Positions 6,637-62,175 of a stretch of DNA of 64,000 bases are shown here, piece after piece (position 1 is the first letter of the stretch; every line of letters starts with the position of its first letter). Origin of the DNA: an uncultured Rikenella sp. (lineage in GTDB: Bacteria > Bacteroidota > Bacteroidia > Bacteroidales > VadinHA17); NCBI GenBank assembly GCA_964537135.1, contig CAZHZC010000006.1, positions 6,669 to 70,668 of the forward strand, read 5' to 3'. The notes under the pieces are model-generated. The model did no database searches, had not been told where the DNA came from, and saw only the letters and a list, made by a program, of their open reading frames with translations. The position numbers were made by a program, and so were the translations under genes.

Positions 6637-6680
6637 TCTGTTTATTCTTTGCGTTAATCCGTTTTTATCCTAAATAATTT

Positions 6681-47381: not shown

Positions 47382-47583
47382 ATCTGAGGCTGTCAGTGAT
47401 ACTATACCGGCCAATCACCGGTTTTGGGGAACAAATATATATAAAAGTAAAATCTGTAATTAATTTTTTGCTCTTTCAGCTTAAGAGGTTTACCATAATT
47501 AAAAAAAAGGTTATTTTTGCACCCGCAATAACTGGTCAGGAAAGAGTGCATGAAGAATAAACTCAATAATGACCGGTGATGTG

Positions 47584-47667
47584 GCCCAGATGGCGAAATT
47601 GGTAGACGCGCTAGTTTCAGGGACTAGTGTCAGCAATGATGTGCAGGTTCGAGTCCTGTTCTGGGCA
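47584..47667 (+). tRNA. tRNA-Leu (anticodon CAG), type II with long variable arm
   Basis: Folded by hand: acceptor GCCCAGA/TCTGGGC, anticodon arm CTAGT-TTCAGGG-ACTAG, T-loop TTCGAGT. CCA is not encoded. Confidence 0.9.
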
Positions 47668-47749
47668 CAGGAGAAGTGAGGAATTCATTACTCAGTGTAT
47701 AGACCGGATTATCGTTTAATACTCTGGGTAATTGATTCTGAAGCAATCT

Positions 47750-47833
47750 GCCCAGATGGTGGAATTGGTAGACACGCCAGCTTGAGGGGCTGGTGCCGGC
47801 AACGGTGTGCAAGTTCGAGTCTTGTCCTGGGCA
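47750..47833 (+). tRNA. tRNA-Leu (anticodon GAG), type II
   Basis: Acceptor GCCCAGA/CCTGGGC (one A-C mismatch), anticodon arm CCAGC-TTGAGGG-GCTGG, T-loop TTCGAGT. Confidence 0.88.
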
Positions 47834-47842
47834 CAAAAAAAT

Positions 47843-47875
47843 GGGAGCAGCTGAAAGAGATGCTCCCTTTTTTTT
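47843..47875 (+). terminator. Rho-independent terminator after the tRNA-Leu pair
   Basis: Stem gggagca (47843..47849) / tgctccc (47861..47867), followed by an 8-nt T-run. Confidence 0.65.
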
Positions 47876-48088
47876 ATCACTTGACTTTTGTCAGTAAATC
47901 GAAGAGGGCAGTAACCTATTTTTAAGCTGTTTTACGGGTGAGAGCTGGAAAAGAGTGCCTGACTGCCCGGGGGCAATACCTTCTTTTGCAGCGTTGCTGA
48001 TAATCAATAACTAAGAGAATGTTTGAAGTGGTCATGAGAGAGGGTGAGCTGATGCAGAGGGATATGAAAATAAATACCTATTGCTGCC

Positions 48089-48529
48089 ATGATTAGAGAT
48101 CACCTGGCCGAAGCCTCTGAGATGTTCAGCTCAGGCTTTAACTGTGCTCAGGCTGTGGCACTCCCTTTCTGTGAAGAGTATGGTGCTGACCGTGCCACCC
48201 TGCTGAAGGTCACTGCCGCCTTTGGCGGTGGTTATGGCGGAAGCGGAAGGACCTGTGGTGCGGTGACGGGCGGCCTTATGGTGATTGGCGCCAGGTATGG
48301 CTCCCTTCACCCTGCAGACCACACCTTAAAAAATATAATAGCCGAAAAGAGCCTCGCGCTTATTGAGTGCTTCACCCGGGCACACGGCACCCTGATGTGC
48401 AGTGAGCTGACAGCACCGGCGAGGCGGCAGGGGAGCGATTCCGGCAGTACATTCACTGCCGTGGAGATGATCAGACTCTGTCCCCGGTTCCTGGAGACGG
48501 TCATAATTTTCCTTGAAGAGGAGCTGTAA
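48089..48529 (+). CDS. C_GCAxxG_C_C family (putative redox-active) protein
   Basis: 146 aa with FNCAQAV, TCGAVTG, LMCSEL and RLCPRF, which is the family's Cys pattern. First gene of the aldehyde oxidoreductase operon. Confidence 0.8.
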   Translation: MIRDHLAEASEMFSSGFNCAQAVALPFCEEYGADRATLLKVTAAFGGGYGGSGRTCGAVTGGLMVIGARYGSLHPADHTLKNIIAEKSLALIECFTRAHGTLMCSELTAPARRQGSDSGSTFTAVEMIRLCPRFLETVIIFLEEEL

Positions 48530-48568
48530 CTAAAAAATGCAATAAACAATCAAATCAGGAGGATCAAT

Positions 48569-51490
48569 ATGAGACTGAGAAAAATGTGGCTTAATATCAA
48601 CGGTGTCAACAGGATGTTCATGTGCAACCCTGAGAAGGACTCCCTTGCTGATGTCATTCGGCGTATGGGACTTACCGGTACCAAGGTGGGTTGTAATACC
48701 GGGGTCTGCGGCTCCTGCTCGCTGATACTGAATAATAAACTTGTTCGCGCTTGCACCAGGAAGATCAGGAATGTGGAGGAGTACAGCAGCGTGGTAACCA
48801 TTGAAGGCATCGGGACGCCGACCAACCCGCATCCGCTGCAGGTGGCATGGATGAATGCCGGGGCGGTGCAGTGCGGATTCTGTACTCCGGGGTTCATCGT
48901 CTCATCCTATGCCCTGCTGCTTGAAAACAACAAACCTACCCGTGAGGAGGTGCGTGACTGGTTCCACAAGCACAAGAACGTATGCCGCTGTACCGGTTAT
49001 GTGCAGATAGTTGATGCTGTCATGCTGGCGGCTGAGGTGATGAGAGGCGAAAAGAGTATAGAGGATATAAGTTTTAAGGATCCTGCTGATGGTGAGTATT
49101 ATGGTAAACCGGTGGTCAGGCCGACCGCCCTGGCCAAGGTGTGCGGGCTGGCTGACTATGGTGATGACCAGGAGCTTAAGATGCCTGCCGAGACACTCAA
49201 GGTGGCCCTTGTACAGCCGCGGGTGGCGCACCATGCAAAAATCCTCTCCATAGATACCTCTGAGGCAGAAAAGATGCCGGGCGTATATAAGATTGTCACT
49301 GCACAGGATATCAAGGCTGCCGGCGGCACCAACCTGATGGCTGAAGGTCACTTCCATGAGCGCACAACCCTGGTGGTGCCTACCAGGCATGTGCTGGCTG
49401 AAGATAAGATCTTCCGGTATGGTGATGTGGTGGCCCTGGTATGTGCCGATACCAGGGAGCATGCCCGTGAGGCAGCTGAAAAGGTGAAGGTGGAGATAGA
49501 AAAACTGCCTGAATACCTTAACTATCTTGATGCCGTGATGCCCGATGCCATGCGTATCCATCACGATACCCCCAACCTCTTCGCCATGCAGCCGGTACTT
49601 AAGGGAGAGGGACTTGATGATCCGGCAAAGGTGGCTGAGATAATAGAGAGCTCACCATACAGTGTGGAGGGAAGCTTCTATTCAAGCAGGGAGCCTCACC
49701 TCTCAATAGAGGGTGATACCATACAGGTCTACTACGATGAAGATGACATGCTTACCATACAGTGTAAGTCGCAGGGGGTCTACTCCTCAATAGGACGAAT
49801 AGGTAACTCGGTAGGGGTGCCCAAGAGCAGGATCAGGGTGGTGATGAACCCCACCGGCGCCAGCTTCGGATGGTCAACCAATGCCGGTAACCTCTGCCTG
49901 GCTGCTGCCGCCGCCGTGGTGACCGGCAGGCCGGTGGCTCTCTCTATGAGCTATGAAGAGCACCAGCACTTCTCAGGCAAGAGAAGACCCAGCTACTCTA
50001 ATGGCAGGGCAGCATGTGACAGTAATGGTAAGATCACTGCGGTGGAGTTTGACTACGGGCTTGACCAGGGTGCCTACACCTTCGGTGGAGATGATATTAT
50101 CACCAAGCCGGCCCGCTTCTCATTCTTCCCCTATAGCATACCCAATGTGGCCGGCCTCTCGCGTATAGCTATCACCAACCATAACTTCGGAACAGCATAT
50201 CGCAGCTACGGCTCACCACAGGCATACACCCTGAGTGAAGCGCTGGTGGATATGCTGGCTGAGAAGGCAGGTATTGACCCGTTTGAGTTCCGCTGGCGGA
50301 ATATAGCACGTGAGGGTGAGACAAATATCAACAGCAGACCCTTCCGCCTCTATCCGATGGAAGAGATGATGAAGACCATGAAGCCGCACTATGAGCAGGC
50401 GGTGAGAGAGGCAAAAGAGAAGAGCACACCCGAAAAACGTCGGGGCGTCGGACTTGCATGGGGTGGGTTTAATGTCTCGGAAGGACCGACAGACCATGCT
50501 ACCGTACGGCTGCAGCTCAATTCTGACGGCACCATAACCAAGTATGACACCTGGCAGGAGCTGGGACAGGGCGGCGACATAGGGTCACTCATGGTTACCC
50601 TCGAGGCCCTGAAGCCACTGAAGATAAAACCTGATCAGGTCAAACTGATACAGAGTGATACAAAAATATGCCCCGACAGCGGAATGTCAGCCGGCAGCCG
50701 GTCTCACTACATGAACGGCAATGCAACAATCGTTGCTGCCAGAAAGCTGATGGATGCCATGCGCAGGGAGGATGGTTCATACCGTACCTATGATGAGATG
50801 GTTAAAGAGAATATACCTACTGTCTATGAGGGTAAATTCAGCAATGTGGCTACACCCGGACTGACACGTCTCGATCCCAATACCGGTATAGGAGACCCGA
50901 CACCAGCCTTTACCTATGCTCTTAACCTGGCTGAGGTGGAGGTAGATATCAACAGCGGCAAGACCACGGTGGTGAGGTTTGTATGTGTGGCTGACGTTGG
51001 CAAGGTGGGTAATATCGATTCGGTGAACGGACAGGCCTTTGGCGGAATATCACACAGCATCGGGTTTGCACTCTCTGAGAACTATGATGATGTAAAAAAA
51101 CATACCAACATAGCCAGCAGCGGAGTACCCTATATAAAGGATATCCCTGATGAGGTGATACTACACTACAATGAGAGCCGTGACCTGCACGGTCCCTTCG
51201 GCTCTTCCGGCGCATCAGAGGCATTCCAGTCGTCAGGACATATGGCGGTGCTCAATGCCATCAACAATGCTACAGGCGTGAGGGTGCATGAGCTGCCGGC
51301 CACAAAGGAGAAGGTGAAGGAGGGTATTGAGAGACTCGCCAGAGGTGAGAAGCCCTATGCTCCCGGCAAATATTTCCTCGGCTCAGACCTCTATGATGAG
51401 CTGGAGAATATGAAAGCCAATCCGGTACCCTATGGCGGTGACGACTTTTTCAAGCCAATGGGGTCAGACGGCGCTGAGAAGTTCTTCTGA
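48569..51490 (+). CDS. Molybdopterin-dependent aldehyde oxidoreductase (Mop type: two [2Fe-2S] domains + Moco domains, no FAD domain)
   Basis: 973 aa. The N-terminus aligns by eye to Desulfovibrio gigas MOP (GLTGTKVGCNTGVCGSCSLIL...CGFCTPG...CRCTGY). AGGAGG lies 7 nt upstream of ATG 48569. ATG 48584 is an alternative start. Confidence 0.9.
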   Translation: MRLRKMWLNINGVNRMFMCNPEKDSLADVIRRMGLTGTKVGCNTGVCGSCSLILNNKLVRACTRKIRNVEEYSSVVTIEGIGTPTNPHPLQVAWMNAGAVQCGFCTPGFIVSSYALLLENNKPTREEVRDWFHKHKNVCRCTGYVQIVDAVMLAAEVMRGEKSIEDISFKDPADGEYYGKPVVRPTALAKVCGLADYGDDQELKMPAETLKVALVQPRVAHHAKILSIDTSEAEKMPGVYKIVTAQDIKAAGGTNLMAEGHFHERTTLVVPTRHVLAEDKIFRYGDVVALVCADTREHAREAAEKVKVEIEKLPEYLNYLDAVMPDAMRIHHDTPNLFAMQPVLKGEGLDDPAKVAEIIESSPYSVEGSFYSSREPHLSIEGDTIQVYYDEDDMLTIQCKSQGVYSSIGRIGNSVGVPKSRIRVVMNPTGASFGWSTNAGNLCLAAAAAVVTGRPVALSMSYEEHQHFSGKRRPSYSNGRAACDSNGKITAVEFDYGLDQGAYTFGGDDIITKPARFSFFPYSIPNVAGLSRIAITNHNFGTAYRSYGSPQAYTLSEALVDMLAEKAGIDPFEFRWRNIAREGETNINSRPFRLYPMEEMMKTMKPHYEQAVREAKEKSTPEKRRGVGLAWGGFNVSEGPTDHATVRLQLNSDGTITKYDTWQELGQGGDIGSLMVTLEALKPLKIKPDQVKLIQSDTKICPDSGMSAGSRSHYMNGNATIVAARKLMDAMRREDGSYRTYDEMVKENIPTVYEGKFSNVATPGLTRLDPNTGIGDPTPAFTYALNLAEVEVDINSGKTTVVRFVCVADVGKVGNIDSVNGQAFGGISHSIGFALSENYDDVKKHTNIASSGVPYIKDIPDEVILHYNESRDLHGPFGSSGASEAFQSSGHMAVLNAINNATGVRVHELPATKEKVKEGIERLARGEKPYAPGKYFLGSDLYDELENMKANPVPYGGDDFFKPMGSDGAEKFF

Positions 51491-51498
51491 TCATACCT

Positions 51499-53736
51499 AT
51501 GGCTTACCTGCATCCGCTGGTTAAAGAGTGTATACAGTATGAACGGGCATTTTGTACTGCAAGATGCCCGTTCGGCCTTGATGTGCGTGACTTTGTCATG
51601 AAGATCACGCAGGGCCGTTTTAATGCTGCCTACAAGACCTACCAGTACAGCGTGGGCTTCCCCGGTATAGTCTCACGGTTATGTGATGAGCCGTGCCGCC
51701 TGGTGTGCCCGATGCATGAGCATGGAGGTGCTATCGCAATGCAGAGGCTCGAGCAGGCTGTGATGCAGCATGCCAGGTCACAGATGCCTGACCAGTACAA
51801 CATGCCCCCCAAGGAGGGCAGGATAGCTGTTGTGGGAGGAGGGATCAGCGGACTGGCCTGTGCGCTGAGGCTCGCCACCAGAAAGTACCAGGTGACGGTG
51901 TATGAGCGCAGTGACCGCGTGGGAGGGCACCTGCATCAGCTCATGCCCTCCGGGCTCCTGATGGCTGACATTGAGATGCAGTTTGCACATGAGAACTATG
52001 AGCTGCTGGCTGATAACAACATAACAGACCTGCAGTCGCTGAACCATGATGCTCTCTATGTGGCCACCGGGAAGGGTGGTGACCGGTTCGGACTTGAGAA
52101 GAGCGATGAGGGACCGTTCGCTACCAACCGTAAAGGGGTCTTTATGGGAGGGTCACTGACCGGCGCCGGCACCATGAAGGCTATTGCTGACGGACTGGCT
52201 GTGGCCGGAGTGATTGAGGCGTACCTCAAGACAGGAAGCATGACCCACGAGGCAGGCCCGGGAGAGGAGACAAAGCTACGCCGTGAGGTGATAAGGGTGG
52301 TGGCTGCCGATGAAGTATGGCCGGGAGATAACGGTATATATACGCGTGAGGAGGCACGCGCCGAGGCCGGGCGATGCCTCAGGTGCAGCTGTGATGCGTG
52401 CGTGCACTACTCACCATTGCTGGCATATTACAGCAAGTTTCCAAGGAGACTGACTGAAGAGGTGGAGGTGACAATAACACCCAGCTCACTCGACGGGGAG
52501 GCTACACTGGTAACCAGGCTGATATCGTCATGCAACCACTGCGGGCTGTGCAGGGAGGTGTGCCCCGTGGATATTGATACGGGTGCGTTCCTGCTGGAGA
52601 GCCACTACACCATGCGCGAGAAGGGTAAGATGCCATGGGCATTCCACCATTTTTATCTGCGTGATATGGCGTTTGCCAACAGCGAGGCGGCAGTGGCAAA
52701 AATGCCGGCAGGAAGCTCTTCAGCCCGTTACATGTTTTTTCCGGGCTGTCAGCTGGGTGCCTCCGACCCTGAGCTGGTACGACAGAGCTACAACATGCTC
52801 CTGGTCCATTACCCTGAGACAGCACTGCTGGCACACTGCTGCGGCGCCCCGGCAGACTGGGCCGGCGAGAGGGAGATACATCAGCAAACCATCACCTCTG
52901 TCAGAAACGAATGGGTGAGGATGGGAAAACCGGAGGTGCTCCTCGCATGCCCCATGTGCCGGCAGATGTTTCAGAGACACCTGCCCGAGATACCTGCACG
53001 GTTCATCTATACGCTGCCGGGCGTTAAGGGAGCGGTACCTGCTCTGGTCAACAACGTGGCAGCATCGGTCTTTGACCCTTGTGCGGCCAGAGATGAGCCA
53101 CAGCTGCAGGAGAGAGTGAGAGAGATAGCCAGAGAGGCGGGGTTTGACCTGAGACCGCTGCCGATGGAGGGGAAGATGGCTGAGTGCTGCAGCTATGGCG
53201 GCCAGGTGGCAGTGGCAAACCCCGGGTATGCCGGGCAGTCAGTAAAAAAGAGGATTGAGCAGAATGATCTGCCATATATAACCTACTGTTCAAACTGCAG
53301 GGATATATTTGCCAGGGCAGGAAAGAGAACATGGCATATACTGGAGCTGATACTGGGAACAGAGACACAGCGGCAGCCGACACAATCTGACAGGAGACGC
53401 AACAGGCTGCGGCTGAAGGAGAGCATGACAGAAGATAATCGTACTGAAGAGGAGAGAACCATGAAGAAGGAAGAGGAAAAGGAAAAGGGAGAACTGATCA
53501 TTTCAGATCAGCTGCGTGAGAAGCTTGACAGGGAGCTGATCCTGGAGCAGGATGTGATTGAGGTGATAAGAGCCTGTGAAGAGAGTGGCAATAAGTTGTA
53601 TGACCCGGCAAATGACAGTTTTACAGGACATCAGATGGTCGGGGAGATGACATGCTGGGTGGTCTACAGGGACAGGGATGATGGCCGACGGGAGCTGGTT
53701 AACAGCTACTGCCACCGAATGAAGATTGAGGAGTAG
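51499..53736 (+). CDS. Multidomain flavo-FeS protein: GltD-like N-terminus, FAD/NAD(P) Rossmann, 4Fe-4S dicluster, two CCG (HdrB/GlpC-like) Cys-rich domains, extra C-terminal domain
   Basis: 745 aa with VVGGGISGLACALRLA, CNHCGLCREVCP, FFPGCQLG...CCGAP and DPCAARD...ECCSYGG. Lies 8 nt after the oxidoreductase gene. Confidence 0.8.
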   Translation: MAYLHPLVKECIQYERAFCTARCPFGLDVRDFVMKITQGRFNAAYKTYQYSVGFPGIVSRLCDEPCRLVCPMHEHGGAIAMQRLEQAVMQHARSQMPDQYNMPPKEGRIAVVGGGISGLACALRLATRKYQVTVYERSDRVGGHLHQLMPSGLLMADIEMQFAHENYELLADNNITDLQSLNHDALYVATGKGGDRFGLEKSDEGPFATNRKGVFMGGSLTGAGTMKAIADGLAVAGVIEAYLKTGSMTHEAGPGEETKLRREVIRVVAADEVWPGDNGIYTREEARAEAGRCLRCSCDACVHYSPLLAYYSKFPRRLTEEVEVTITPSSLDGEATLVTRLISSCNHCGLCREVCPVDIDTGAFLLESHYTMREKGKMPWAFHHFYLRDMAFANSEAAVAKMPAGSSSARYMFFPGCQLGASDPELVRQSYNMLLVHYPETALLAHCCGAPADWAGEREIHQQTITSVRNEWVRMGKPEVLLACPMCRQMFQRHLPEIPARFIYTLPGVKGAVPALVNNVAASVFDPCAARDEPQLQERVREIAREAGFDLRPLPMEGKMAECCSYGGQVAVANPGYAGQSVKKRIEQNDLPYITYCSNCRDIFARAGKRTWHILELILGTETQRQPTQSDRRRNRLRLKESMTEDNRTEEERTMKKEEEKEKGELIISDQLREKLDRELILEQDVIEVIRACEESGNKLYDPANDSFTGHQMVGEMTCWVVYRDRDDGRRELVNSYCHRMKIEE

Positions 53737-53740
53737 TGCC

Positions 53741-53935
53741 ATGGAGGAGAAGAGGGTACTTATTTGCCATAAATGCAACAGGGAGCTGGAGATGAGACGG
53801 ACAGACTTCACATACCTGGGACATACATTCCATACAGACCTGCCACGCTGTCCGGAGTGCGGAATGGTCTATATCTCTGAAGAGCTGGTGAAAGGGCGTA
53901 TTTCAGATGTGGAGACACAGCTCGAAGATAAATAG
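53741..53935 (+). CDS. Small zinc-ribbon protein (YgiT-like CxxC...CxxC)
   Basis: 64 aa from ATG 53741: MEEKRVLICHKCNRELEMRRTDFTYLGHTFHTDLPRCPECGMVYISEE. GAGGAG upstream. 4 nt after the previous stop and 1 nt before the radical SAM start. Confidence 0.65.
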   Translation: MEEKRVLICHKCNRELEMRRTDFTYLGHTFHTDLPRCPECGMVYISEELVKGRISDVETQLEDK

Positions 53936-53936
53936 T

Positions 53937-55364
53937 ATGGATCACCGTGAAACTATTGCCTCCACCTGGAGCCTCTGTCCGGTATGCCTGAAGAGAGTGC
54001 CGGCTGAGAGGGTCAGACAGGGGAGGATGATCTTCCTTGAGAAGGAGTGTCCGGAGCATGGAGCCTTCAGTACCGTTATCTGGCGTGGCTACTATGACTT
54101 TGCACGGCGCGCTGCCAGCAGCGGTGAGCTCTTCACCGCCGAGCCGGAGTGTCCCGACAGGTGCGGGCTGTGTGATGACCATCAGCAGAAGACATGCTGC
54201 ACACTGCTCAATGTGACCGATAACTGTAACCTGGGATGCCTCTTCTGCCTGGCTGACCAGAGAAATGGCTCCACAGACCCGCCGCTGGAGAGAGTGAAGG
54301 AGTCACTTGAGAGACTGGTGGTAAAGGGCAGGACACTGGTACAGCTCAGCGGAGGAGAGCCTGCCACGCGTGATGACCTGCCCGACATCGTGGCGGCAGC
54401 ACGTAAGGCAGGAGCCAGGTACGTACAGCTCAACAGTAACGGGATCAGGCTGGGAGAGGAGCCTGACTACGTTAAGAGACTGGCTGATGCCGGACTCTCA
54501 TTCCTGTTTTTACAATATGACGGTACCGATGATCAGATAAACCTTAAGCTGAGGGGAAGAAGCCTGATAGAGATTAAGCAGCAGGCCATCAGCAACTGTG
54601 CTGACCATGGTATCGGTGTGACACTGGTACAGACACTGGTGAGGGGTGTCAACCTCAACAATATAGGTGAGCTGATACGCTATGCCGTGACAGCGTCACC
54701 GGCAGTGCGGGGGATACACTTTCAGCCGGTGAGCTATTTCGGCAGGATACCCGCCATGCCGGATGACAATGACCGTATAACAATGGATGAGCTCCTCTGT
54801 GAGATTGAACGGCAGACCGGCGGAATGGTCGGCGCCGACTATCTGAGACCATCATGCTGTGACCACCCGCTCTGTAAATTTCATGGTGACTTTGTGGTTA
54901 CACCTGACAATAACCTTATGCCGCTGCACAAGGAGCCGGCAGCGGGAATCGCGTCGTGTGCAGTGCAGCCCCCCGGGGCGCTCTCCTTTGCGGAGCCGGC
55001 CCCCGGAAAGCACCCCTCGGCTGATCCTGCTTCCGGAAACACCTCATGTGCGGAGCCTGCCGCCACTGCTGACATGGATAATAGGCGGCTGCAGGTAGCA
55101 GCCGACCGTAACAGGGAGTTTATCGGGAGGCGCTGGAGCAGGCCGCAGGGAGCGGCAGAGGCAGTGCCGCCGTCAGGTGATATGCACGATATGGACTACT
55201 TCCTCTGGAGAGCAAAGAACTATGGTTTTACCATCACCTCAATGATGTTCCAGGATGCCGGAAACATTGACCTTGACCGGCTGAGAAAGTGTGGATTCCA
55301 TGTGTGGGACAACGGCAGGCTTATCCCTTTCTGTGCCAACTATCTTACCCCGTGGCAGCGATGA
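53937..55364 (+). CDS. Atypical radical SAM enzyme with N-terminal zinc ribbon and additional Cys motifs
   Basis: 475 aa from ATG 53937. C14xxC17...C38xxH41. C72x3C76x2C79 plus C87C88. Canonical C97x3C101x2C104 (CNLGCLFC). Downstream SCCDHPLCKFHG. Low-complexity A/P/S/G insert near the C-terminus. Confidence 0.85.
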   Translation: MDHRETIASTWSLCPVCLKRVPAERVRQGRMIFLEKECPEHGAFSTVIWRGYYDFARRAASSGELFTAEPECPDRCGLCDDHQQKTCCTLLNVTDNCNLGCLFCLADQRNGSTDPPLERVKESLERLVVKGRTLVQLSGGEPATRDDLPDIVAAARKAGARYVQLNSNGIRLGEEPDYVKRLADAGLSFLFLQYDGTDDQINLKLRGRSLIEIKQQAISNCADHGIGVTLVQTLVRGVNLNNIGELIRYAVTASPAVRGIHFQPVSYFGRIPAMPDDNDRITMDELLCEIERQTGGMVGADYLRPSCCDHPLCKFHGDFVVTPDNNLMPLHKEPAAGIASCAVQPPGALSFAEPAPGKHPSADPASGNTSCAEPAATADMDNRRLQVAADRNREFIGRRWSRPQGAAEAVPPSGDMHDMDYFLWRAKNYGFTITSMMFQDAGNIDLDRLRKCGFHVWDNGRLIPFCANYLTPWQR

Positions 55365-55987
55365 GTGGGAACGGTGATACCGCGGTGAGAAGGCCTGGAG
55401 GGTTCATTATCACTGACAGGGCATTGACTTTCTGCGGGCTGCCGGAGGGTGCTGCTGTACTTGACATAGGATGCGGCTCGGGAGCTACCGTGATGCACAT
55501 GAGAAGCCATTATGGCTACACCGCCTGGGGGATCGACAAAAGGGGCGGGAACGGTAGCAGCTACCTGAGAGAGGGGCAGGGTGAGAGGATACCCTGGCCA
55601 GACAACTCATTCGACGCCGTAATGATGGAGTGCAGCTTTACACTGATGGATGACCAGTGCGCAGTGCTGAAGGAGTGCCTGAGGGTGCTTGTGCATGGCG
55701 GCAGGCTGATCATCTCCACCATCTATGCGTTGGGTGAGCCGGCAATACTGCCAGAGAGCATAGGACGGATAGAGAGTCGTGAAAACCTTCTCCGTAAGAT
55801 AGAGCAGCACCGGTTTAAGACTATCCTCTTTGAAGAGTATACACCCCACCTGAAAACCATGTGGGGGCAGATGATAATGGAGCGGGGGGCCGGGGCGCTC
55901 TATCAGACCCTCGGCGCAGACTATGATGAGATGAGACGTATCAGGTGCGGATACTGCCTGATCATTGCAACAAAGGAGGATCAGTGA
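55361..55987 (+). CDS. Class I SAM-dependent methyltransferase
   Basis: 208 aa from ATG 55361 (ATGA overlap with the radical SAM stop). Motif I VLDIGCGSGATV. The post-I acidic residue is not confirmed by eye. Confidence 0.8.
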   Translation: MSGNGDTAVRRPGGFIITDRALTFCGLPEGAAVLDIGCGSGATVMHMRSHYGYTAWGIDKRGGNGSSYLREGQGERIPWPDNSFDAVMMECSFTLMDDQCAVLKECLRVLVHGGRLIISTIYALGEPAILPESIGRIESRENLLRKIEQHRFKTILFEEYTPHLKTMWGQMIMERGAGALYQTLGADYDEMRRIRCGYCLIIATKEDQ

Positions 55988-57262
55988 ATGGGCTCTCCCG
56001 TGACGGAATGGACAGCCGGCAGGAGCGGACTGCCAACGGGCCATAGCTATGAGGAGATGAGAGAGTGGCAGGGCAGATGCCTGGATGAGACGCTGAGCTA
56101 TGCAGCACACAACACCAGGTTCTATAGTGAGAGGGTCAAGCCGGGGATGAGGCTCGATGAACTCCCTTTTACCTGTCCGGATGACCTGGCTGCAGACCCG
56201 CTGGCATTTCTGGCTATACCCCGCAGCAGCGTGGCAAGGGTGACAACCCTGGCAAACTCAGGCACTACACTCCTCAGGAAGAGCATATTCTTTTCCGGTG
56301 ACGACCTGCAACGGACCAGGGACTTTTTTGCTGCAGGCATGAGAAACCTGGTCACCAGAGGTGAGAGGGTTGCCATATTGATATCAAACCTCACTGAGAA
56401 CAGCCTCGGCTCACTCCTCCATGAGAGCCTCCTGCAGATAGGTGCCCTGCCCGGCCTAAAAGGAGTGATACGGTCGGCAGAGGAGGCGCTGGAGGCTGCC
56501 CGTGGCGCAGACTGTATCGTCGGCATGCCCGCCGAACTGCTCTATATGTGCCGCAGAGACCCATCACTGAGGCCGCGGACAGTACTGCTGGCAGCAGATA
56601 TCGTCCCGGAGGCGGTCAGGGAGGCAGTGAGGAGCGCCTGGAGGTGTGACCCCTACATACACTGGGGACACTCCGAGCTGGGATATGGCTGTGCTGTCGA
56701 CTGCTCATATCATGAGGGTCTGCACCTGCGTGATGCCGAGATGATCTTCGAGATCATTGATACCAATACCGGCAGGCCACTGCCACAGGGCAGCAGCGGT
56801 GAGATAGTTGTTACCACCCTCACCCGCAGGGCGATGCCCCTGATCCGTTATCGTACAGGACACTTTTCATCACTGTTAGCTGACCCGTGCGGCTGCGGTG
56901 GTGTGCTGCCGCGACTGGGGCGGATAGAGGGCAGAATGACCGACGCCGTGACCCTGCCGGGAGGAGAGACCATTGATATGCTTACGCTGGATGAGATACT
57001 CTTCTCAGACCCCGCCGTCAGAGGATTTGAAGCTGTATTGGAGCTGCGGGATCGGATGGGAGAACGGGATCGGATGGGAGAATGGGATCGAATGAGAGAA
57101 CGGGATCGGATAGCGGTATTGAAGCTGCTGATAGATGCTGACACAGATGTGGATATCAGCTCACTGGTGAAGAGAGTGCCGGAGGGGACCATGGTTGAGA
57201 GTCATCGGGGAGAGGCCGACCCGTTCGCCAGACGCAGAAAAAGAAGGATAGCAATTGTGTAG
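55988..57262 (+). CDS. PaaK/F390-synthetase-like adenylate-forming (AMP-dependent) ligase
   Basis: 424 aa. The start abuts the methyltransferase stop (0-nt gap), with AAGGAGG upstream. Has an NSGTTLLRKS P-loop-like motif and GEIVVTTL...PLIRYRTGH. An 18-bp repeat lies in the C-terminal subdomain. Confidence 0.7.
   Translation: MGSPVTEWTAGRSGLPTGHSYEEMREWQGRCLDETLSYAAHNTRFYSERVKPGMRLDELPFTCPDDLAADPLAFLAIPRSSVARVTTLANSGTTLLRKSIFFSGDDLQRTRDFFAAGMRNLVTRGERVAILISNLTENSLGSLLHESLLQIGALPGLKGVIRSAEEALEAARGADCIVGMPAELLYMCRRDPSLRPRTVLLAADIVPEAVREAVRSAWRCDPYIHWGHSELGYGCAVDCSYHEGLHLRDAEMIFEIIDTNTGRPLPQGSSGEIVVTTLTRRAMPLIRYRTGHFSSLLADPCGCGGVLPRLGRIEGRMTDAVTLPGGETIDMLTLDEILFSDPAVRGFEAVLELRDRMGERDRMGEWDRMRERDRIAVLKLLIDADTDVDISSLVKRVPEGTMVESHRGEADPFARRRKRRIAIV
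57048..57118. repeat. 18-bp in-frame tandem repeat, about 3.7 copies ((R)DRMGE hexapeptide)
   Basis: cgggatcggatgggagaa x2, then tgggatcgaatgagagaa, then cgggatcggatagcggta. Confidence 0.9.
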
Positions 57263-57268
57263 TAACAC

Positions 57269-58084
57269 TCAGACGGTTTTACCATCTTTCATGATACATA
57301 TCTTGCGGGCACAGTAGTGGAAAAGGTGGTAGCCAGAACCACACTCACTCACCAGAGGGAACAGCATCTCAGGCCTGGTTATCTGGGTGGCTCCAATAAC
57401 AGTTACCTTGTTACGGAACAGCACGTCGGGAATAATACTGCTGGAGGGGCCGGTAACAATAACCGTGGTACCGGGGGCGACAGCAGCCAGCAAACCATCT
57501 ATGGTGTTGTTGACAAGGGTCATGCCGGTGATGATGACAATCTCGGAGGAGGGAAGGATGGAGGCATATTCATCGGCCGGCACAAAATATTGCATCTGGT
57601 CAGATGAGAGAGTGTCAGGGTCAAGCTCAAGCACCTTCAGACGGCTGCCATAGCCTGAGAGCCGGTGTATGTACGACTGAAAAGCACCTACCAGGGTGAT
57701 CAGACCCCTCTTCTCCGGGTCGACCAGCTCAATGGGATCCATGTCAGGAATGATGGTGTAGGCGCCGTTTGCAAGGTGAGCAGATGAGATGGCATTCAAT
57801 ACGGCAATCCTCACCGAATCAATCATCGCGTTCTGCTTAGGAGTCTCAAAGAGTGAGGTGACACTGCTGCCAGCCACCTTTGTCGGACTGAACTCACCGT
57901 AGTCACGGCCCTTGCAGCTGGCATGCCTCTCTGTCTCAGGCAGGGTGCTGGCAACACCATGGGAGCCGTCAGAGAGTCTCACCGCCGTCAGACGTGCACC
58001 TATTACCAGCTTGTCTATCATGAGTCTCTTCAGGCGCTCACTCTGCATGCTCCTGACAAAATCGTATGTCTCTTTAATAATCAT
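57269..58084 (-). CDS. DUF4213/DUF364 Rossmann-like (putative metal-chelation) protein
   Basis: 271 aa. Recognised by overall pattern (VIGARLTAVRLSDGSHGVAST... N-domain; ITLVGAF...VIITGMTLVNNT... Rossmann half). Its stop is only 6 nt from the convergent ligase stop. Confidence 0.6.
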   Translation of the reverse strand: MIIKETYDFVRSMQSERLKRLMIDKLVIGARLTAVRLSDGSHGVASTLPETERHASCKGRDYGEFSPTKVAGSSVTSLFETPKQNAMIDSVRIAVLNAISSAHLANGAYTIIPDMDPIELVDPEKRGLITLVGAFQSYIHRLSGYGSRLKVLELDPDTLSSDQMQYFVPADEYASILPSSEIVIITGMTLVNNTIDGLLAAVAPGTTVIVTGPSSSIIPDVLFRNKVTVIGATQITRPEMLFPLVSECGSGYHLFHYCARKICIMKDGKTV

Positions 58085-58134
58085 CCCCCCGGGTTGTTAA
58101 ATAGTTACCTCCCGCTCCCTGACGGCAACAGGAA

Positions 58135-58908
58135 TTACTCCTCTGACTGCATCCTGTTTCTTACATCTATCAGCTTGGCAACAATGCTGATAGCAATCTC
58201 TGACGGAGTCACTGCATTGAATTTTATACCGATAGGCATATCTACCCTGTCTAGCTCCTCACCGGTGAGTATCTCCTCTTTCAGGAACCTCCTGCGGAGT
58301 GTCTCAATCTTCCTTTTACTGCCGATAAGCCCTATATATGCCGCCTCCCTCTTCCCTACCGCGGCAAGGATATCCTCATCCATCTCATGGTTGGGTGTTA
58401 CTATCACGATGTAGCTCTGCCGGTCAAAGGTGATCTCGCTGACAGCCTCCAGGTAGGGTCTCACCATGACTGAGTACTCATGAGCACCCGGTTCGTGAAG
58501 CAGCTCCTCACGCCAGTCGATCACACAGGTCTCAAAGTCGAGCCCTGAGGCATATTGTGCCAGTTGGGCACCGATGTGTCCGGCACCGAAGATGTAGAGC
58601 CTGGCACTTTTGCGCAATGGCTCGATATAGACGGTCACGCTGCCGCCACAGGTCATAGACAGGTCAGCACCCAGGTTGTACTCTCTCGAGACAGTGCCTC
58701 CCCTGCGTATCACCTCCAGCGCATCCTCAATAACCTGCTTCTCGATAGCACCACCCCCGACGGTGCCGTCAATGGTACCATCACTGAAGACTATCATCTT
58801 CGCGCCCGCCTTTCCGGGAACGGAGCCCCGTATGGCAGTTACTATACAGAGCGCTGAGAGACGCCTCTCTTCAAGGGCGTGTATCACTTTATTGTAAAAC
58901 TTGCTCAT
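58135..58908 (-). CDS. xdhC: XdhC/CoxI family molybdoenzyme maturation (Moco sulfuration/insertion) factor
   Basis: From ATG 58908: MSKFYNKVIHALEE...ALCIVTAIRGSVPGKAGAKMIV..DG...GTVGGG, then the Rossmann half LYIFGAGHIG. The track start at 58929 is GTG. Confidence 0.85.
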   Translation of the reverse strand: MSKFYNKVIHALEERRLSALCIVTAIRGSVPGKAGAKMIVFSDGTIDGTVGGGAIEKQVIEDALEVIRRGGTVSREYNLGADLSMTCGGSVTVYIEPLRKSARLYIFGAGHIGAQLAQYASGLDFETCVIDWREELLHEPGAHEYSVMVRPYLEAVSEITFDRQSYIVIVTPNHEMDEDILAAVGKREAAYIGLIGSKRKIETLRRRFLKEEILTGEELDRVDMPIGIKFNAVTPSEIAISIVAKLIDVRNRMQSEE

Positions 58909-59071
58909 TCTTAAACAGGTTGTGCTCACCGGAACCCTCCTGACACTGTCACAGAGCGGGAGCTGTTTCTTTATGCTAATGGCCGTAAAACTACCCTGAT
59001 TATTGTAATTAATGCATAACTAAAGTCATGGTTTGATATCGGGCAGTGGCCTGTGCAGAGCAGCACCCGAA

Positions 59072-59165
59072 AGCAGGTGCCGGCGGCTACCGGCGATGCA
59101 TGACTGTGACAGATAGCAGGTGCCGGCGGTTACCGGCGATGCATGACTGTGACAGATAGCAGGTA
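59072..59165. repeat. 43-bp direct tandem repeat, about 2.2 copies, in the spacer upstream of xdhC
   Basis: agcaggtgccggcggYtaccggcgatgcatgactgtgacagat at 59072..59114 and 59115..59157, with a partial third copy. One mismatch between the full copies. Confidence 0.92.
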
Positions 59166-59190
59166 CTCTCTGTAGCAGTCCGAACCTCTT

Positions 59191-62175
59191 TTACAGCCTG
59201 GCATCATAAACAGCCTGCAATATTCTGCCTCTCACTGACAGGTCTGACAGCAGGCTGTTTCTCCTGGTGGGATAGACCCTGTTGCTCAGGAAGAGGTATG
59301 AAATCTCCTCATCCGGGTCAACCCAGATAAAGGTGCCGGTGAATCCTGAATGGCCATAGCTGGAGGGTGAGGCCGACGGGCAGGGGTAGGCCTCATCAGC
59401 CGGTATGGTATCATTACCCAGCAGCGGCTTGTCAAAGCCGAGTGCCCTGCGGTTGTCATTCTCAGGGTACTGAACGGTAGTATATCTCTGCAACACCTCA
59501 CGGCTCAGTATCCTCACCCCGCCATACTCACCACCGCGACGGTACATCTCTATCACCTTCATCAGGTCGTTGCCTGAGGCAAACAGGCCTGCATGACCTG
59601 AGACACCTCCCAGCAGAGAGGTGGCCTCATCATGAACGGTACCCCTGATAAGCTGCTTACGGAATAGCGAGTCATACTCAGTAGGTACTATACGGGCACG
59701 CGGATACTTCTCAAGAGGCCGGTAGGTGATATTGAATGCTCCCAGGGGACGGTAGATATTGGCAGGTGCAAACTTGTCAATAGTACTGTCGGTCAGGCTC
59801 TCAATGATCTCTGCTGCCAGTATAAAGGTGAGGTCGGAATAGAGATATTTTTTAGGTCCGAGCGGACTGTCACGGATAGCCCTGAACATCTCCTTCAGAT
59901 AACTCCTGTTGATATACAATGAGTCACTCACCGGCAGGGCAAACCTGCGGTTGGCATAGTCCCTGTAGAGGCCACGCCGGTAGGTGCTGTCATTCTCCAT
60001 GGTGTTCTGCCAGAAAGGGAGGCCGGGACGAAGGCCCGCCTGGTGGGCCAGCATATCACGGAGCAGCATGTCACCCTTGTTTGAGAAACGATACCATGGG
60101 AGATAGTACCCCAGGGTCTTGTCAGGGTCAAACAGTCCGCGGTCATCAAGCACCATCAGTGAGGGGGTGGCTGAAGCCACCTTGGTGACAGAGGCCAGGT
60201 CCCAGAGATCATATTCGGTAACCGCTTCGGTACTGTCAAACAGGTGAAAGCCGTAACACTTGTTGAAAACCACCGTACCACGACGAGCTATTATGACATG
60301 GCAGCCGGGAAAGGCGAGGGTGTCAAGCGCCTCATTGACGATAGAGTCAACACGGCTGATCAGCTTCTCAGAGGATAGGCCGGCATTCTCAGGGTAGGCG
60401 TAGCGCAGACGCAGGCTGCCGGCTGTCTTTATACCGGTACCGGCAGGGTAGCTGTCACCCACAGTGACGGGAAGCCTGCCGGAGGCGCCGATGGCACCAA
60501 AGAGTACCTGTACGGCAATATCCTGAGTGAAGCTGTTGTCCTGATAGGCTACAAGCATGGCAGCCGGCTTCCGCGAGAGGTCAAGCCTGGCAAGACCATA
60601 GGGGCTGCCGAACCATATGACGGCAGAGTGCTCCAGGGCAGCTATCTCACTGAAGATGCGGGAGAGGGCAGGGGTGACACCATAACCGCCTGAGGGCTTC
60701 TGTGCCATGGCACCAAACCCGGCAATCACCAGATCGTAATCCTTAAGCTTAGACATGATAAAGCGTGCACCCACCTCATTGGAGGGGTCAATAAAATAGT
60801 GGTCAGCACTGGCATAGCGGTCTACCATCTTCTGAAAGCCGGTCATGGCCAGCCTGTTGACAGAGACAGTGGCTATCCTGATCAGGTCAGGACGGGCAAG
60901 AGGAATCAGGTTGGCACGGTTCTCTACCAGGGTCATGGCGCCGGCATAGAGCTCATGTATAAGCGCCGGCTGCCCCGGGCCTGCTGTGGAGCCGTCGGGC
61001 ACCCTGCCCTCCTGATCGCCGCCGCTGTTCATCGCATGCTGATCATTCTTCCCAGGCTGGCAGCTGGCGATCCACAGCTTGGCGGCCAGCACACGGCGTA
61101 CGCGGTCAGTAATCTGGCTGGCAGCCAGCTCACCACTCTCAACCCTGGAGGCTATCTCATCCAAAGCCTTCAGCGGGCTGACCGGGAACTCGATTACATC
61201 ATTGCCTGCAATAAGTGCATTGAAGTCGGCTACTCCCGGAGGAAAGGTCTTTGTGGCAGCAGCCATATTCATGGCATCGGTAATGATCAGTCCGCCATAC
61301 CCGGCCTCCTCCCTAAGCAGGCCGGTGACCACCTTGTGTGAGAAGGTGGATGGCAGCCCGCTCTCATCGAGGGCGGGCACGCTGATATGGCCTGTCATCA
61401 AAGCACCAACACCTTCATTGATGAGACGCATGAAAGGGAGCAGCTCAATATTGTCAAACCGCTGCCGGTCACCACTGATGACCGGTACACTCTTGTGCGA
61501 GTCGGTATCGGTATCACCATGGCCGGGGAAGTGCTTGGCACAGGCCAGGATGCCGTTGTCCTGCATACCCTTCATAAACATCGCTGCCTTGGCAGCAACC
61601 CTTACGGGATCCTCACCAAATGAGCGGTAGTTGATGACAGGGTTGAGCGGGTTGTTATTCACGTCAGCCACAGGGGCAAGGTTAATATTGACACCCACAT
61701 CATGGCACTGCCGGGCAATGGCTGCGCCCATACGATAGATCAGTGAGTCATCTTCAAGGGCACCCAGGGTGAGCTGCCAGGGAAAATTTTCTATGTCACT
61801 GAGCCGCATACCGGTACCCCATTCAGCATCTATGGCTATGATAAGAGGCAGCTTCGACACCTCCTTTATCCGGCGGGTATACTCACGCTGTAGCTCACTG
61901 CTGCCCTCAAAAAAGATGATACCGCCGATGCCATGCCGCGATACCAGCTCCTCAATGGAACGGTAGTTGCCACCCATGGCATCTGCATAGGCGGGTACCC
62001 AGATGAGCTGACCAATCATCTCCCTGAGAGTCATGGTATTAAGTATAGAGTCGATGGTCGGGTCAGTGAGATATCCCTGCCATGGCGGGTTTCCTTTGTC
62101 AGCTTTGACAGATGGTGTCGTCAGGATAAACAGCCCCAGAAGGAGAGCGAGGCGGGTTGATCGTTTTGTTATCAT
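59191..62175 (-). CDS. Bifunctional GH3 beta-N-acetylhexosaminidase (NagZ-like) / serine beta-lactamase-family hydrolase fusion
   Basis: 994 aa with a signal peptide, the GH3 motif KHFPGHGDTDTDSH, and a C-terminal class-C/PBP-like SxxK box (ASVTKV). Confidence 0.88.
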   Translation of the reverse strand: MITKRSTRLALLLGLFILTTPSVKADKGNPPWQGYLTDPTIDSILNTMTLREMIGQLIWVPAYADAMGGNYRSIEELVSRHGIGGIIFFEGSSELQREYTRRIKEVSKLPLIIAIDAEWGTGMRLSDIENFPWQLTLGALEDDSLIYRMGAAIARQCHDVGVNINLAPVADVNNNPLNPVINYRSFGEDPVRVAAKAAMFMKGMQDNGILACAKHFPGHGDTDTDSHKSVPVISGDRQRFDNIELLPFMRLINEGVGALMTGHISVPALDESGLPSTFSHKVVTGLLREEAGYGGLIITDAMNMAAATKTFPPGVADFNALIAGNDVIEFPVSPLKALDEIASRVESGELAASQITDRVRRVLAAKLWIASCQPGKNDQHAMNSGGDQEGRVPDGSTAGPGQPALIHELYAGAMTLVENRANLIPLARPDLIRIATVSVNRLAMTGFQKMVDRYASADHYFIDPSNEVGARFIMSKLKDYDLVIAGFGAMAQKPSGGYGVTPALSRIFSEIAALEHSAVIWFGSPYGLARLDLSRKPAAMLVAYQDNSFTQDIAVQVLFGAIGASGRLPVTVGDSYPAGTGIKTAGSLRLRYAYPENAGLSSEKLISRVDSIVNEALDTLAFPGCHVIIARRGTVVFNKCYGFHLFDSTEAVTEYDLWDLASVTKVASATPSLMVLDDRGLFDPDKTLGYYLPWYRFSNKGDMLLRDMLAHQAGLRPGLPFWQNTMENDSTYRRGLYRDYANRRFALPVSDSLYINRSYLKEMFRAIRDSPLGPKKYLYSDLTFILAAEIIESLTDSTIDKFAPANIYRPLGAFNITYRPLEKYPRARIVPTEYDSLFRKQLIRGTVHDEATSLLGGVSGHAGLFASGNDLMKVIEMYRRGGEYGGVRILSREVLQRYTTVQYPENDNRRALGFDKPLLGNDTIPADEAYPCPSASPSSYGHSGFTGTFIWVDPDEEISYLFLSNRVYPTRRNSLLSDLSVRGRILQAVYDARL

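Follow-up and report, generated by a model that had tools for sequence, protein, structure and literature searches.

The 64-kb stretch of DNA analyzed here, referred to below as the window (positions 6,669 to 70,668 of contig CAZHZC010000006.1, from an uncultured Rikenella sp.), carries a cluster of nine genes that includes a Mop-type molybdopterin aldehyde oxidoreductase (AOR). The cluster is a cysteine-form member of a conserved gene island that NCBIfam names after DVU_1551-1557 of Desulfovibrio vulgaris. Six of the nine proteins score above curated NCBIfam cut-offs: AOR, a flavo-FeS/CCG protein (below, the flavo-FeS protein), a Zn-ribbon protein, the radical S-adenosylmethionine (SAM) protein TrsS, a SAM-dependent methyltransferase, and a PaaK-like adenylate-forming enzyme (below, the ligase). 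The neighborhood has already been catalogued in other anaerobes by the NCBIfam curators. What is new is that TrsS keeps all four metal-cofactor motifs of GDGT-MAS, the enzyme that synthesizes tetraether lipids in archaea, that families of the island occur as MocA-DUF5714, DUF5714-TrsS, and methyltransferase-ligase fusions, and that the Zn-ribbon protein travels with the flavo-FeS protein, which has no NAD(P)H domain, and not with TrsS.

Mop-type AOR is known from textbooks as a molybdenum enzyme whose accepted requirements are just the cytosine dinucleotide form of the molybdenum cofactor (Moco) and two 2Fe-2S clusters. Its gene travels, in at least five phyla, with a flavo-FeS/CCG protein and a homologue of the enzyme that joins inert carbons in archaeal lipids. 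We tentatively divide the island into two modules, a redox core (AOR, flavo-FeS protein, and Zn-ribbon protein) and a module for maturation or tailoring of Moco, a division that we favor but rate slightly below an even proposition.

Gene content and synteny of the island

Seven co-directional genes on the plus strand (48089-57262) are separated by gaps of 39, 8, 4, 1, -4, and 0 nt, as determined from the list of open reading frames (ORFs) and by direct reading. On the minus strand (57269-58908), the XdhC gene is followed by the DUF364 gene, whose stop codon lies 6 nt from that of the ligase, so that the two units converge (Table 1). Alignment with homologues favored the ATG at 53937 as the start of TrsS over the beginning of a longer ORF from 53907; for XdhC, the ATG at 58908 was favored by tblastn with homologues.

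Table 1. Genes of the cluster and upstream tRNA genes, with their profile matches (scores in bits against family cut-offs where given)
Feature	Length (aa)	Window position	Strand	Profile match
C_GCAxxG_C_C protein	146	48089-48529	+	PF09719, 90.8; TIGR01909, 65 vs 47
Mop-type molybdopterin AOR	973	48569-51490	+	NF045668, 1155.2 vs 1100
Flavo-FeS/CCG protein ("diclust_near_Sec")	745	51499-53736	+	NF045663, 747.7 vs 530
DVU_1557-family Zn-ribbon protein	64	53741-53935	+	NF045645, 83.5 vs 60; PF24292
Radical SAM protein TrsS, Cys form	475	53937-55364	+	NF045646, 502.3 vs 490
DVU_1556-family class I SAM methyltransferase	208	55361-55987	+	NF045667, 166.5 vs 155; Methyltransf_11
DVU_1553-family PaaK-like adenylate-forming enzyme (ligase)	424	55988-57262	+	NF045666, 330.3 vs 300
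DUF4213 + DUF364 protein	271	57269-58084	-	PF04016, 119; PF13938
XdhC-family Mo-cofactor chaperone/insertion factor		58135-58908	-	Pfam XdhC_CoxI + XdhC_C
tRNA-Leu genes (two), anticodons CAG and GAG		47584-47668, 47750-47834	+	Rfam

A preliminary description, made from the letters of the sequence, had given the nine genes, their order, their gaps, and the convergent pair exactly as we found them, and profile searches against NCBIfam, TIGRFAM, and Pfam bore out all of its family assignments. Its statement that the same families cluster at the DVU_155x genes of D. vulgaris agrees with the NCBIfam names, which refer to DVU_1551, 1553, 1555, 1556, and 1557, with DVU_1559 as Aor. The name "radical SAM (seleno)protein TrsS" likewise matches the remark that the radical SAM member is sometimes a selenoprotein, and a 2026 review includes TrsS among selenoprotein families, taking it from Haft & Tolstoy 2025 (mSystems 10:e0141724). 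The cassette had been called uncharacterized. With regard to function this stands, in that we found no paper giving one, and the phrase "conserved but mechanistically undescribed" apparently still applies. With regard to recognition it does not, since curated NCBIfam families already cover six of the proteins and TrsS appears in the review.

Synteny was evaluated from two anchors. The TrsS-anchored scan took one genome per species and comprised 80 loci, in which partner genes were sought by tblastn; many of the partner-poor loci lie on short contigs. The flavo-FeS gene was found in 58 of the 80 loci, the methyltransferase in 55, the Zn-ribbon gene in 54, and AOR and the ligase in 53 each. These loci come from at least five phylum-level groups (Bacteroidota, Bacillota, Synergistota, Acidobacteriota, and Vecturithrix), and one arrangement, with AOR first and then flavo-FeS, Zn-ribbon, TrsS, methyltransferase, and ligase, was seen repeatedly in Bacteroidales, Lentimicrobiaceae, Clostridia, Synergistaceae, Holophagaceae, and Vecturithrix. 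The AOR-anchored scan of metagenomes, in which enzymes of at least 44% identity were taken as Mop-type, yielded 10 loci with sufficient flanks (L086, L087, L088, L089, L091, L092, L094, L095, L096, and L100). All 10 contained the flavo-FeS gene, in each case 3' of AOR, and the Zn-ribbon gene; TrsS and the methyltransferase were present in 7/10 each and the ligase in 6/10. None of those five genes occurred at approximately 60 loci that encode other members of the xanthine oxidase family (no more than 34% identity, in many cases split into two subunits). Because it was found from both anchors and at none of the other xanthine-oxidase-family loci, the association is two-way and specific to the Mop clade of AOR. 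The proposal of the preliminary description that the packed genes form one functional unit thus gained support from conserved synteny in both scans, and the accessory genes proved to be syntenic with Mop-type AOR across genomes.

The loci fall into several types. The canonical order, which includes the window, is the first. In the second, AOR is divergent from an operon of methyltransferase, C_GCAxxG_C_C protein (CGC protein), ligase, XdhC, DUF5714, and TrsS, and the third has the order flavo-FeS, Zn-ribbon, DUF5714, TrsS, AOR, without methyltransferase and ligase. The fourth consists of DUF5714 and TrsS alone, and the fifth of ArsR, CobW, and a TrsS-like gene without AOR. In rearranged operons (L018, L046, L057, L076, L092, L094, and L095), XdhC and MocA are interspersed among the genes for the methyltransferase, Cys-rich protein, ligase, DUF5714, and TrsS, which all run in the same direction; L092, L094, and L095 show the D. 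vulgaris order of AOR, flavo-FeS, Zn-ribbon, methyltransferase, CGC protein, TrsS, ligase, XdhC, MocA.

Clustering of all ORFs in the 80 TrsS loci identified the further neighbors. A MocA-like nucleoside triphosphate (NTP) transferase of the DVU_1551 family occurred at 25 loci, XdhC at 23 to 25, DUF364 at 17, a membrane protein with a THEP1-like NTPase at 14, a PpnP-like cupin at 13, stand-alone DUF5714 at 12, a ModE-type regulator at 9, CobW at 8, ModA or ModB at 5 to 6, and ArsR at 5. By tblastn, the 64-kb window gave no match to the DVU_1551-type NTP transferase (MocA), DUF5714, PpnP, or the Mod genes.

Outside AOR loci, relatives of TrsS adjoin an ArsR metal sensor and a CobW metallochaperone. 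In this AOR-less group of TrsS-like proteins (L038/L081, L042, L043, L045, L049, L050, L060, and L069), the genes lie 3' of those for an ArsR/SmtB metalloregulator and a GTPase of the CobW (COG0523) type, a context that points to a metal-linked function of the branch. In a neighbor-joining tree the CobW/ArsR-linked proteins form one derived clade, and linkage to AOR is found on both main branches.

Encoded proteins and surroundings of the operon

TrsS of the window passes its family model narrowly, being divergent and carrying an insert. It matches GDGT-MAS (PDB 7TOL) at E = 5e-69. An AlphaFold2 (AF2) model built with 30 sequences (predicted local distance difference test score, 80.6; predicted template modeling score, 0.82) aligned to 7TOM over its full length in Foldseek with a template modeling (TM) score of 0.73; the next best match, MoaA, reached 0.39, and NifB and HydE shared only the generic radical SAM core (TM score of approximately 0.35). 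In GDGT-MAS, the metal centers are a rubredoxin-like site (C9X2C12X20C33X2H36), a cluster near the N terminus that is bound by C73, C77, C80, and one His, the radical SAM cluster, and a C-terminal cluster in which Met439 is a labile ligand; through the C-terminal cluster, a carbon-sulfur intermediate is formed with the methyl carbon of the lipid (Lloyd et al. 2022). The corresponding residues of TrsS are invariant: the rubredoxin-like motif C14X2C17X20C38X2H41, the N-terminal cluster ligands C72, C76, C79, and H82, the radical SAM motif C97X3C101X2C104, and M436, which aligns with Met439. Its homology to GDGT-MAS and Tes constrains the chemistry of TrsS, which by analogy probably follows the same radical logic on another substrate. 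Residues ~305 to 427 do not align with GDGT-MAS and carry conserved CxHxxCxxH and CC motifs of their own, and the score against the Tes family model NF045702 is 294.6, below the cut-off of 450.

No in-frame TGA codon, and thus no selenocysteine, was found in TrsS of the window or at any of 87 loci with TrsS; all are Cys forms. Pterin methylation, implied by the Pfam name "HMPTM" and by annotation in IMG, was set aside as a function since it is unproven and the activity of MJ0619 was not reproducible by Lloyd et al.; IMG still labels some TrsS-type proteins "7,8-dihydro-6-hydroxymethylpterin dimethyltransferase." The window gene contains an in-frame tandem DNA repeat at 54989-55061 (period 30, 2.4 copies). 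The resulting insert is missing from 29/29 aligned homologues, and AF2 predicts disorder at residues 337 to 376.

AOR aligns over its full length with the D. desulfuricans (1DGJ) and D. gigas (1SIJ) structures (814 bits), with the catalytic Glu conserved. It is built from a pair of 2Fe-2S domains and the Mo-cofactor domains, ends in a C-terminal tail of ~52 aa, and is 54 to 83% identical to the AORs of syntenic loci. With 373 bits against a cut-off of 830, it fails TIGR03311, the model for selenium-dependent xanthine dehydrogenase/molybdenum hydroxylase. The tail (residues 922 to 973; window 51332-51487) occurs in AORs of ~973 aa, not in the crystallized 907-aa Desulfovibrio enzymes or in metagenome relatives of 44% identity. 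Ten of its residues are invariant (G926, P932, K934, Y935, L937, G938, D940, K949, N951, and P952), and a partner protein may dock there.

The flavo-FeS protein begins with a GltD/NfnB-like part that holds two [4Fe-4S] clusters and flavin adenine dinucleotide, followed by a ferredoxin-like dicluster, one HdrB/HdrD-like CCG domain and a putative second, and, at the C terminus, a further conserved domain. Pfam matches were obtained for Fer4_20, NAD_binding_8, Fer4_17, and one CCG; the second CCG was seen by its motif only (VFDPC...ECCSYGG), which is conserved in 48 sequences. Alignment with GltD-like chains skips ~160 target residues, which correspond to the NAD(P)H domain. The NCBIfam label "pyridine nucleotide-disulfide oxidoreductase" may therefore mislead with regard to its electron partner. 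Since the NAD(P)H domain is absent and HdrA-, HdrC-, and HdrB-like features are combined in one chain, the acceptor is likely of the disulfide/thiol type and not NAD(P)+. GltD-like modules fused to Mo enzymes are present in the PDB (9BOV and 8OH5). Judged from its sequence, the flavo-FeS protein is best read as the electron-transfer partner of AOR. The preliminary description had counted six accessory proteins without a required role, and this protein should probably be taken off that list.

The Zn-ribbon protein was stand-alone in 69/69 homologues, with no case of a fused domain. Conservation exceeds that of the enzymes (mean column identity, 75%); C9, C12, C37, C40, V57, E58, E62, D63, and K64 are invariant, and the chain ends in V-E-x-x-x-E-D-K-COOH. 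The AF2 model comprises a Zn-ribbon hairpin and a C-terminal helix of low confidence. Its closest fold, the protein-binding N-terminal domain of MqsA, was not a significant match, and this was all that the fold search yielded for the idea of a LysW-like carrier. The gene always lies 3' of the flavo-FeS gene and is missing wherever TrsS occurs without AOR. In L089 and L100, the order AOR, flavo-FeS, Zn-ribbon is retained though TrsS, methyltransferase, and ligase are missing nearby. A partnership of the Zn-ribbon protein with the radical SAM enzyme is thus rejected, as the protein co-occurs with the flavo-FeS protein and AOR, not with TrsS.

In the methyltransferase, an RPGG motif, D85, and E90-C91 are invariant in 44 sequences. 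The protein scores below the ArsM model (46.7 against 263), although its best named relatives are still arsenite methyltransferases. The invariant C91, in the ArsM-aligned segment, differs from C196, which is conserved in only 50 to 80% of the family. One DVU_1556-type methyltransferase, from a Lentimicrobiaceae metagenome-assembled genome (L021, ~11317-11904), has an in-frame stop at the equivalent of residue 64 of the window protein. The stop might be a codon for selenocysteine (if TGA) or else reflect a pseudogene or a mistake in assembly. The ligase matches PaaK (4R1L) at E = 3e-22 but remains below the PaaK equivalog TIGR02155 (81.7 against 646), sharing only the adenylation core and motifs. 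The adenylation motifs SGTT, YRTG, GR, and C-terminal GKRR, with the C-terminal Lys, are conserved in the family. An in-frame tandem DNA repeat at 57047-57111 (period 18, 3.6 copies) encodes RDRMGE repeats in a region that is unconserved in the family alignment.

The CGC protein contains four Cys, scores below the DVU_1555 model NF045669 (45.4 against 103), and has no sequence-related structure in the PDB. Homologues occur in 43 of the 80 TrsS loci, where the position upstream of AOR is conserved; in other orders the gene stands between the methyltransferase and TrsS or the ligase, and in some genomes DUF5714 substitutes for it. It was provisionally assigned to the tailoring module. XdhC of the window is below NF045664 (212.6 against 350, matching the C-terminal half of the 346-position model only) and below TIGR02964 (143 against 162).

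DUF364 is known from the literature in modABC operons and, by cofitness, with nitrogenase genes in a methanogen; the only characterized member cyclizes a SAM derivative. In the loci studied here its neighbors are mostly XdhC and the membrane-NTPase gene, and the protein may be a molybdate- or cofactor-related helper. At Bacteroidales loci such as L003, L014, L019, and L071, DUF364 is paired with a 571-aa multi-pass membrane and THEP1-like NTPase protein, beside XdhC and a ModE-like regulator; in the window it is present without this companion.

Several fusions connect these families. DUF5714 is fused to the N terminus of TrsS in several proteins inside AOR loci (P0004, P0013, and P0048). Directly upstream of TrsS in L046 (7996-9996, plus strand), one ORF of 666 aa joins a MobA/MocA-like NTP transferase to a histidine phosphatase and to DUF5714; in L057 (8021-9280, plus strand) the NTP transferase and histidine phosphatase are fused and DUF5714 is the next, separate gene. 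The methyltransferase is fused to the ligase in P0246. DUF5714 itself shows a weak match to the "metal-binding double selenoprotein MbdU." Some Clostridia loci have an HD-domain gene after MocA instead of the histidine phosphatase, and together with the MocA-phosphatase fusions this hints at a phosphatase step coupled to nucleotidylation of the cofactor.

The gene unit spans ~47880 to ~59000. A GC-rich hairpin with a T-run at ~47836-47878, 3' of both tRNA-Leu genes, resembles their terminator, and the operon's own promoter should therefore sit at ~47880-48088. Apart from the two tRNAs, Rfam gave no match, including to the Moco riboswitch, either in the whole window at gathering thresholds or in the leader at E <= 1. 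A sigma-70 and terminator scan of 47300-59300 returned counts not above those for shuffled sequence, this kind of scan being ill-suited to Bacteroidota promoters. Unrelated housekeeping genes flank the unit: lysC and lysA on the opposite strand upstream, and a NagZ/beta-lactamase-like gene and NagX downstream.

Possible functions of the accessory genes

The main argument for a cofactor-related role comes from the fusions, in which a Cys-rich domain connects TrsS with the enzyme producing the cytosine dinucleotide cofactor. Genes for molybdate transport and a ModE-like regulator close to related loci also count in favor of a tailoring module, as do the ArsR and CobW neighbors of TrsS relatives outside AOR loci. 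The preliminary description had left the choice between tailoring or maturation of the cofactor, an alternative metal or ligand, and a dedicated electron-transfer and substrate-activation pathway. Tailoring or maturation is the best supported of these, by the interleaving with XdhC and MocA and by the chain of fusions from MocA through histidine phosphatase and DUF5714 to TrsS.

Under the two-module reading, AOR would oxidize aldehydes at its molybdopterin cytosine dinucleotide site, and electrons would pass via the two 2Fe-2S clusters to the flavo-FeS protein and from there to a disulfide/thiol-type redox partner, likely not to NAD(P)+. The 64-aa Zn-ribbon protein with its ...EDK tail would be a docking subunit of the AOR/flavo-FeS pair. 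On the maturation side, XdhC, with MocA where present, would carry out the standard cofactor-handling steps. The CGC protein, or DUF5714 elsewhere, would hold a metal- or cofactor-bound intermediate, on which the methyltransferase and the adenylating enzyme would act in succession. TrsS would then abstract hydrogen from an unactivated sp3 carbon, probably a methyl group, in the manner of GDGT-MAS, its Met-gated C-terminal [4Fe-4S] cluster would capture the radical, and a bond would form. What results would be some feature of the AOR cofactor or Mo site that is labile or has so far gone unseen. In its most specific form, which we regard as rather unlikely, the module makes an undescribed labile modification of Moco or of the Mo coordination sphere in Mop-type AORs, for example a carbon-bridged or alkylated ligand that arises when a methyl group is added and its C-H bond is then activated as in GDGT-MAS. 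If that were true, the native cofactor would have escaped decades of work on Desulfovibrio enzyme purified aerobically. More generally, should the cassette tailor the cofactor, the native form of a classic enzyme has still to be described, and a new branch of Moco biosynthesis would be open to D. vulgaris genetics. Should it not, the cassette would still represent a new use of GDGT-MAS-type radical chemistry.

A number of points weigh against a tailoring function. Some Mop-type loci (L089 and L100) have no TrsS, methyltransferase, or ligase nearby, and some TrsS-AOR loci (L040, L068, and L074) are without methyltransferase and ligase. As these genes are absent from some AOR loci, they may be dispensable for an active AOR. 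MocA, DUF5714, and the mod genes are not in this window, the only characterized homologue of TrsS acts on lipid tails, and co-transcription with XdhC and MocA could reflect only shared regulation with AOR. For every accessory gene, the support comes from sequence and gene context. For the enzymes of D. gigas and D. desulfuricans, structures at high resolution contain the cytosine dinucleotide cofactor in its ordinary form, and modified residues are not known from them, so that any modification would have to be labile, substoichiometric, or lost in aerobic purification.

The accessory enzymes could instead serve a substrate pathway, catabolic or biosynthetic, in which AOR converts a specific aldehyde to the acid, the ligase forms acyl-AMP or acyl-coenzyme A (CoA), and TrsS and the methyltransferase then modify this activated form. 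Aldehyde to acid to thioester is an established sequence (e.g., in anaerobic phenylalanine degradation), the ligase belongs to the phenylacetate-CoA ligase clade with its adenylation motifs kept, and in L018 genes for a CoA-transferase and an enoyl-CoA hydratase separate TrsS from the ligase. The 70 to 83% identity of AOR across phyla would also be expected for one fixed substrate. However, such a pathway leaves unexplained the MocA-histidine phosphatase-DUF5714 and DUF5714-TrsS fusions, the ArsR and CobW neighbors of TrsS relatives, and the Cys-rich metal-binding partners; the loci contain no conserved transporter or other catabolic genes, and some TrsS-AOR loci do without ligase and methyltransferase. 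We consider it doubtful. The roles might also be reversed, with AOR as the servant: very low-potential electrons from aldehyde oxidation, passed on through the flavo-FeS and Zn-ribbon proteins, would drive TrsS in organometallic chemistry on a species bound to the CGC protein or DUF5714, with an ArsM-like enzyme as methyl donor and a product outside AOR. Radical SAM enzymes do require a low-potential reductant, TrsS-like genes stand without AOR beside ArsR, CobW, or DUF5714, DUF5714 resembles MbdU, and the invariant Cys of the methyltransferase lies in the segment aligned with arsenic methyltransferases, where we take it to be the equivalent of the arsenic-binding Cys. The CobW/ArsR-linked genes, however, make up the single derived clade described above, with AOR linkage on both main branches, and linkage to one clade of Mo enzymes together with XdhC, MocA, and Mod exceeds what electron supply would need. 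AOR is moreover abundant in D. vulgaris proteomes and is listed there under ethanol metabolism, which suggests a role of its own, and on balance a servant role appears unlikely. Fitness data for D. vulgaris were irrelevant, as the "Aor" of Trotter et al. 2023 is the tungsten enzyme DVU1179 and not the Mop enzyme.

A narrower form of the maturation reading concerns the terminal sulfido (or selenido) Mo ligand that xanthine-oxidase-family enzymes need. The cassette would install or repair this labile chalcogen, with the CGC protein relaying S or Se and the CCG domains reducing persulfides. AOR of D. gigas as isolated is the desulfo form, XdhC-family proteins handle the sulfurated cofactor, CCG domains act on disulfides, and the NCBIfam names record selenocysteine variants in several cassette families. 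Transfer of S or Se would not need a C-H-activating GDGT-MAS-like enzyme, a methyltransferase, or an adenylating enzyme, though; the conserved genes of the loci include neither a cysteine desulfurase nor selD, and AOR falls far short of the selenium-dependent xanthine dehydrogenase model (373 against 830). We hold this to be quite improbable. Least credible of all is that TrsS is a bacterial synthase of tetraether or membrane-spanning lipids that merely adjoins AOR. Its full-length similarity to GDGT-MAS in fold and cofactors fits such a role, and bacterial Tes homologues have been proposed as makers of brGDGTs (branched glycerol dialkyl glycerol tetraethers; Zeng et al. 2022), yet TrsS scores 295 against the Tes cut-off of 450, residues ~305 to 427 have no counterpart in GDGT-MAS, no lipid-synthesis genes lie nearby, and TrsS is tightly and specifically linked to AOR, XdhC, and MocA. 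In that study, a criterion of E < 1e-50 and identity > 20% yielded 456 bacterial "Tes homologs" as candidate brGDGT producers. With E = 5e-69 to GDGT-MAS, TrsS-type proteins would pass, and surveys of brGDGT producers for palaeoclimate proxies may include TrsS false positives.

Comparison with known systems

The closest system is the TrsS/DVU_1551-1557 neighborhood described by NF045645, NF045646, and NF045663-NF045669, which has the same families in the gene order seen at many Bacteroidales loci. The window differs from it in the Cys form of TrsS in place of selenocysteine, in the absence of a DVU_1551-type NTP transferase from the 64 kb, and in an added DUF364 gene, paired with XdhC; its CGC protein and XdhC are below the neighborhood-specific cut-offs, its gene order is not that of the D. 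vulgaris type, and its TrsS and ligase contain the in-frame tandem-repeat insertions.

Known maturation systems built on XdhC and MocA (Rhodobacter capsulatus XdhC, Escherichia coli PaoD, and MocA) resemble the window in having an XdhC-family gene at the AOR locus. In those systems, however, XdhC, MocA, and a cysteine desulfurase suffice, with no radical SAM enzyme, methyltransferase, adenylating enzyme, or Cys-rich carriers. The 745-aa flavo-FeS protein appears to share GltD-like, HdrC-like, and HdrB-like parts with HdrABC/HdrD and with the GltD/NfnB modules found on Mo enzymes (E. coli YgfK with XdhD; 9BOV and 8OH5), but combines them in one polypeptide without an NAD(P)H domain and with an extra C-terminal domain.

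NifB, in the synthesis of the iron-molybdenum cofactor, and HydE/HydG, in that of the H-cluster, offer an analogous logic, in which a SAM-derived methyl group or ligand is processed on a scaffold before delivery. This is an analogy only, TrsS having no close sequence relationship to NifB or HydE. With GDGT-MAS/Tes (7TOL and 7TOM; Lloyd et al. 2022; Zeng et al. 2022), TrsS shares the fold and four metal sites, whereas it has its own segment of ~120 residues and is encoded in the context of a Mo enzyme and not of lipid synthesis.

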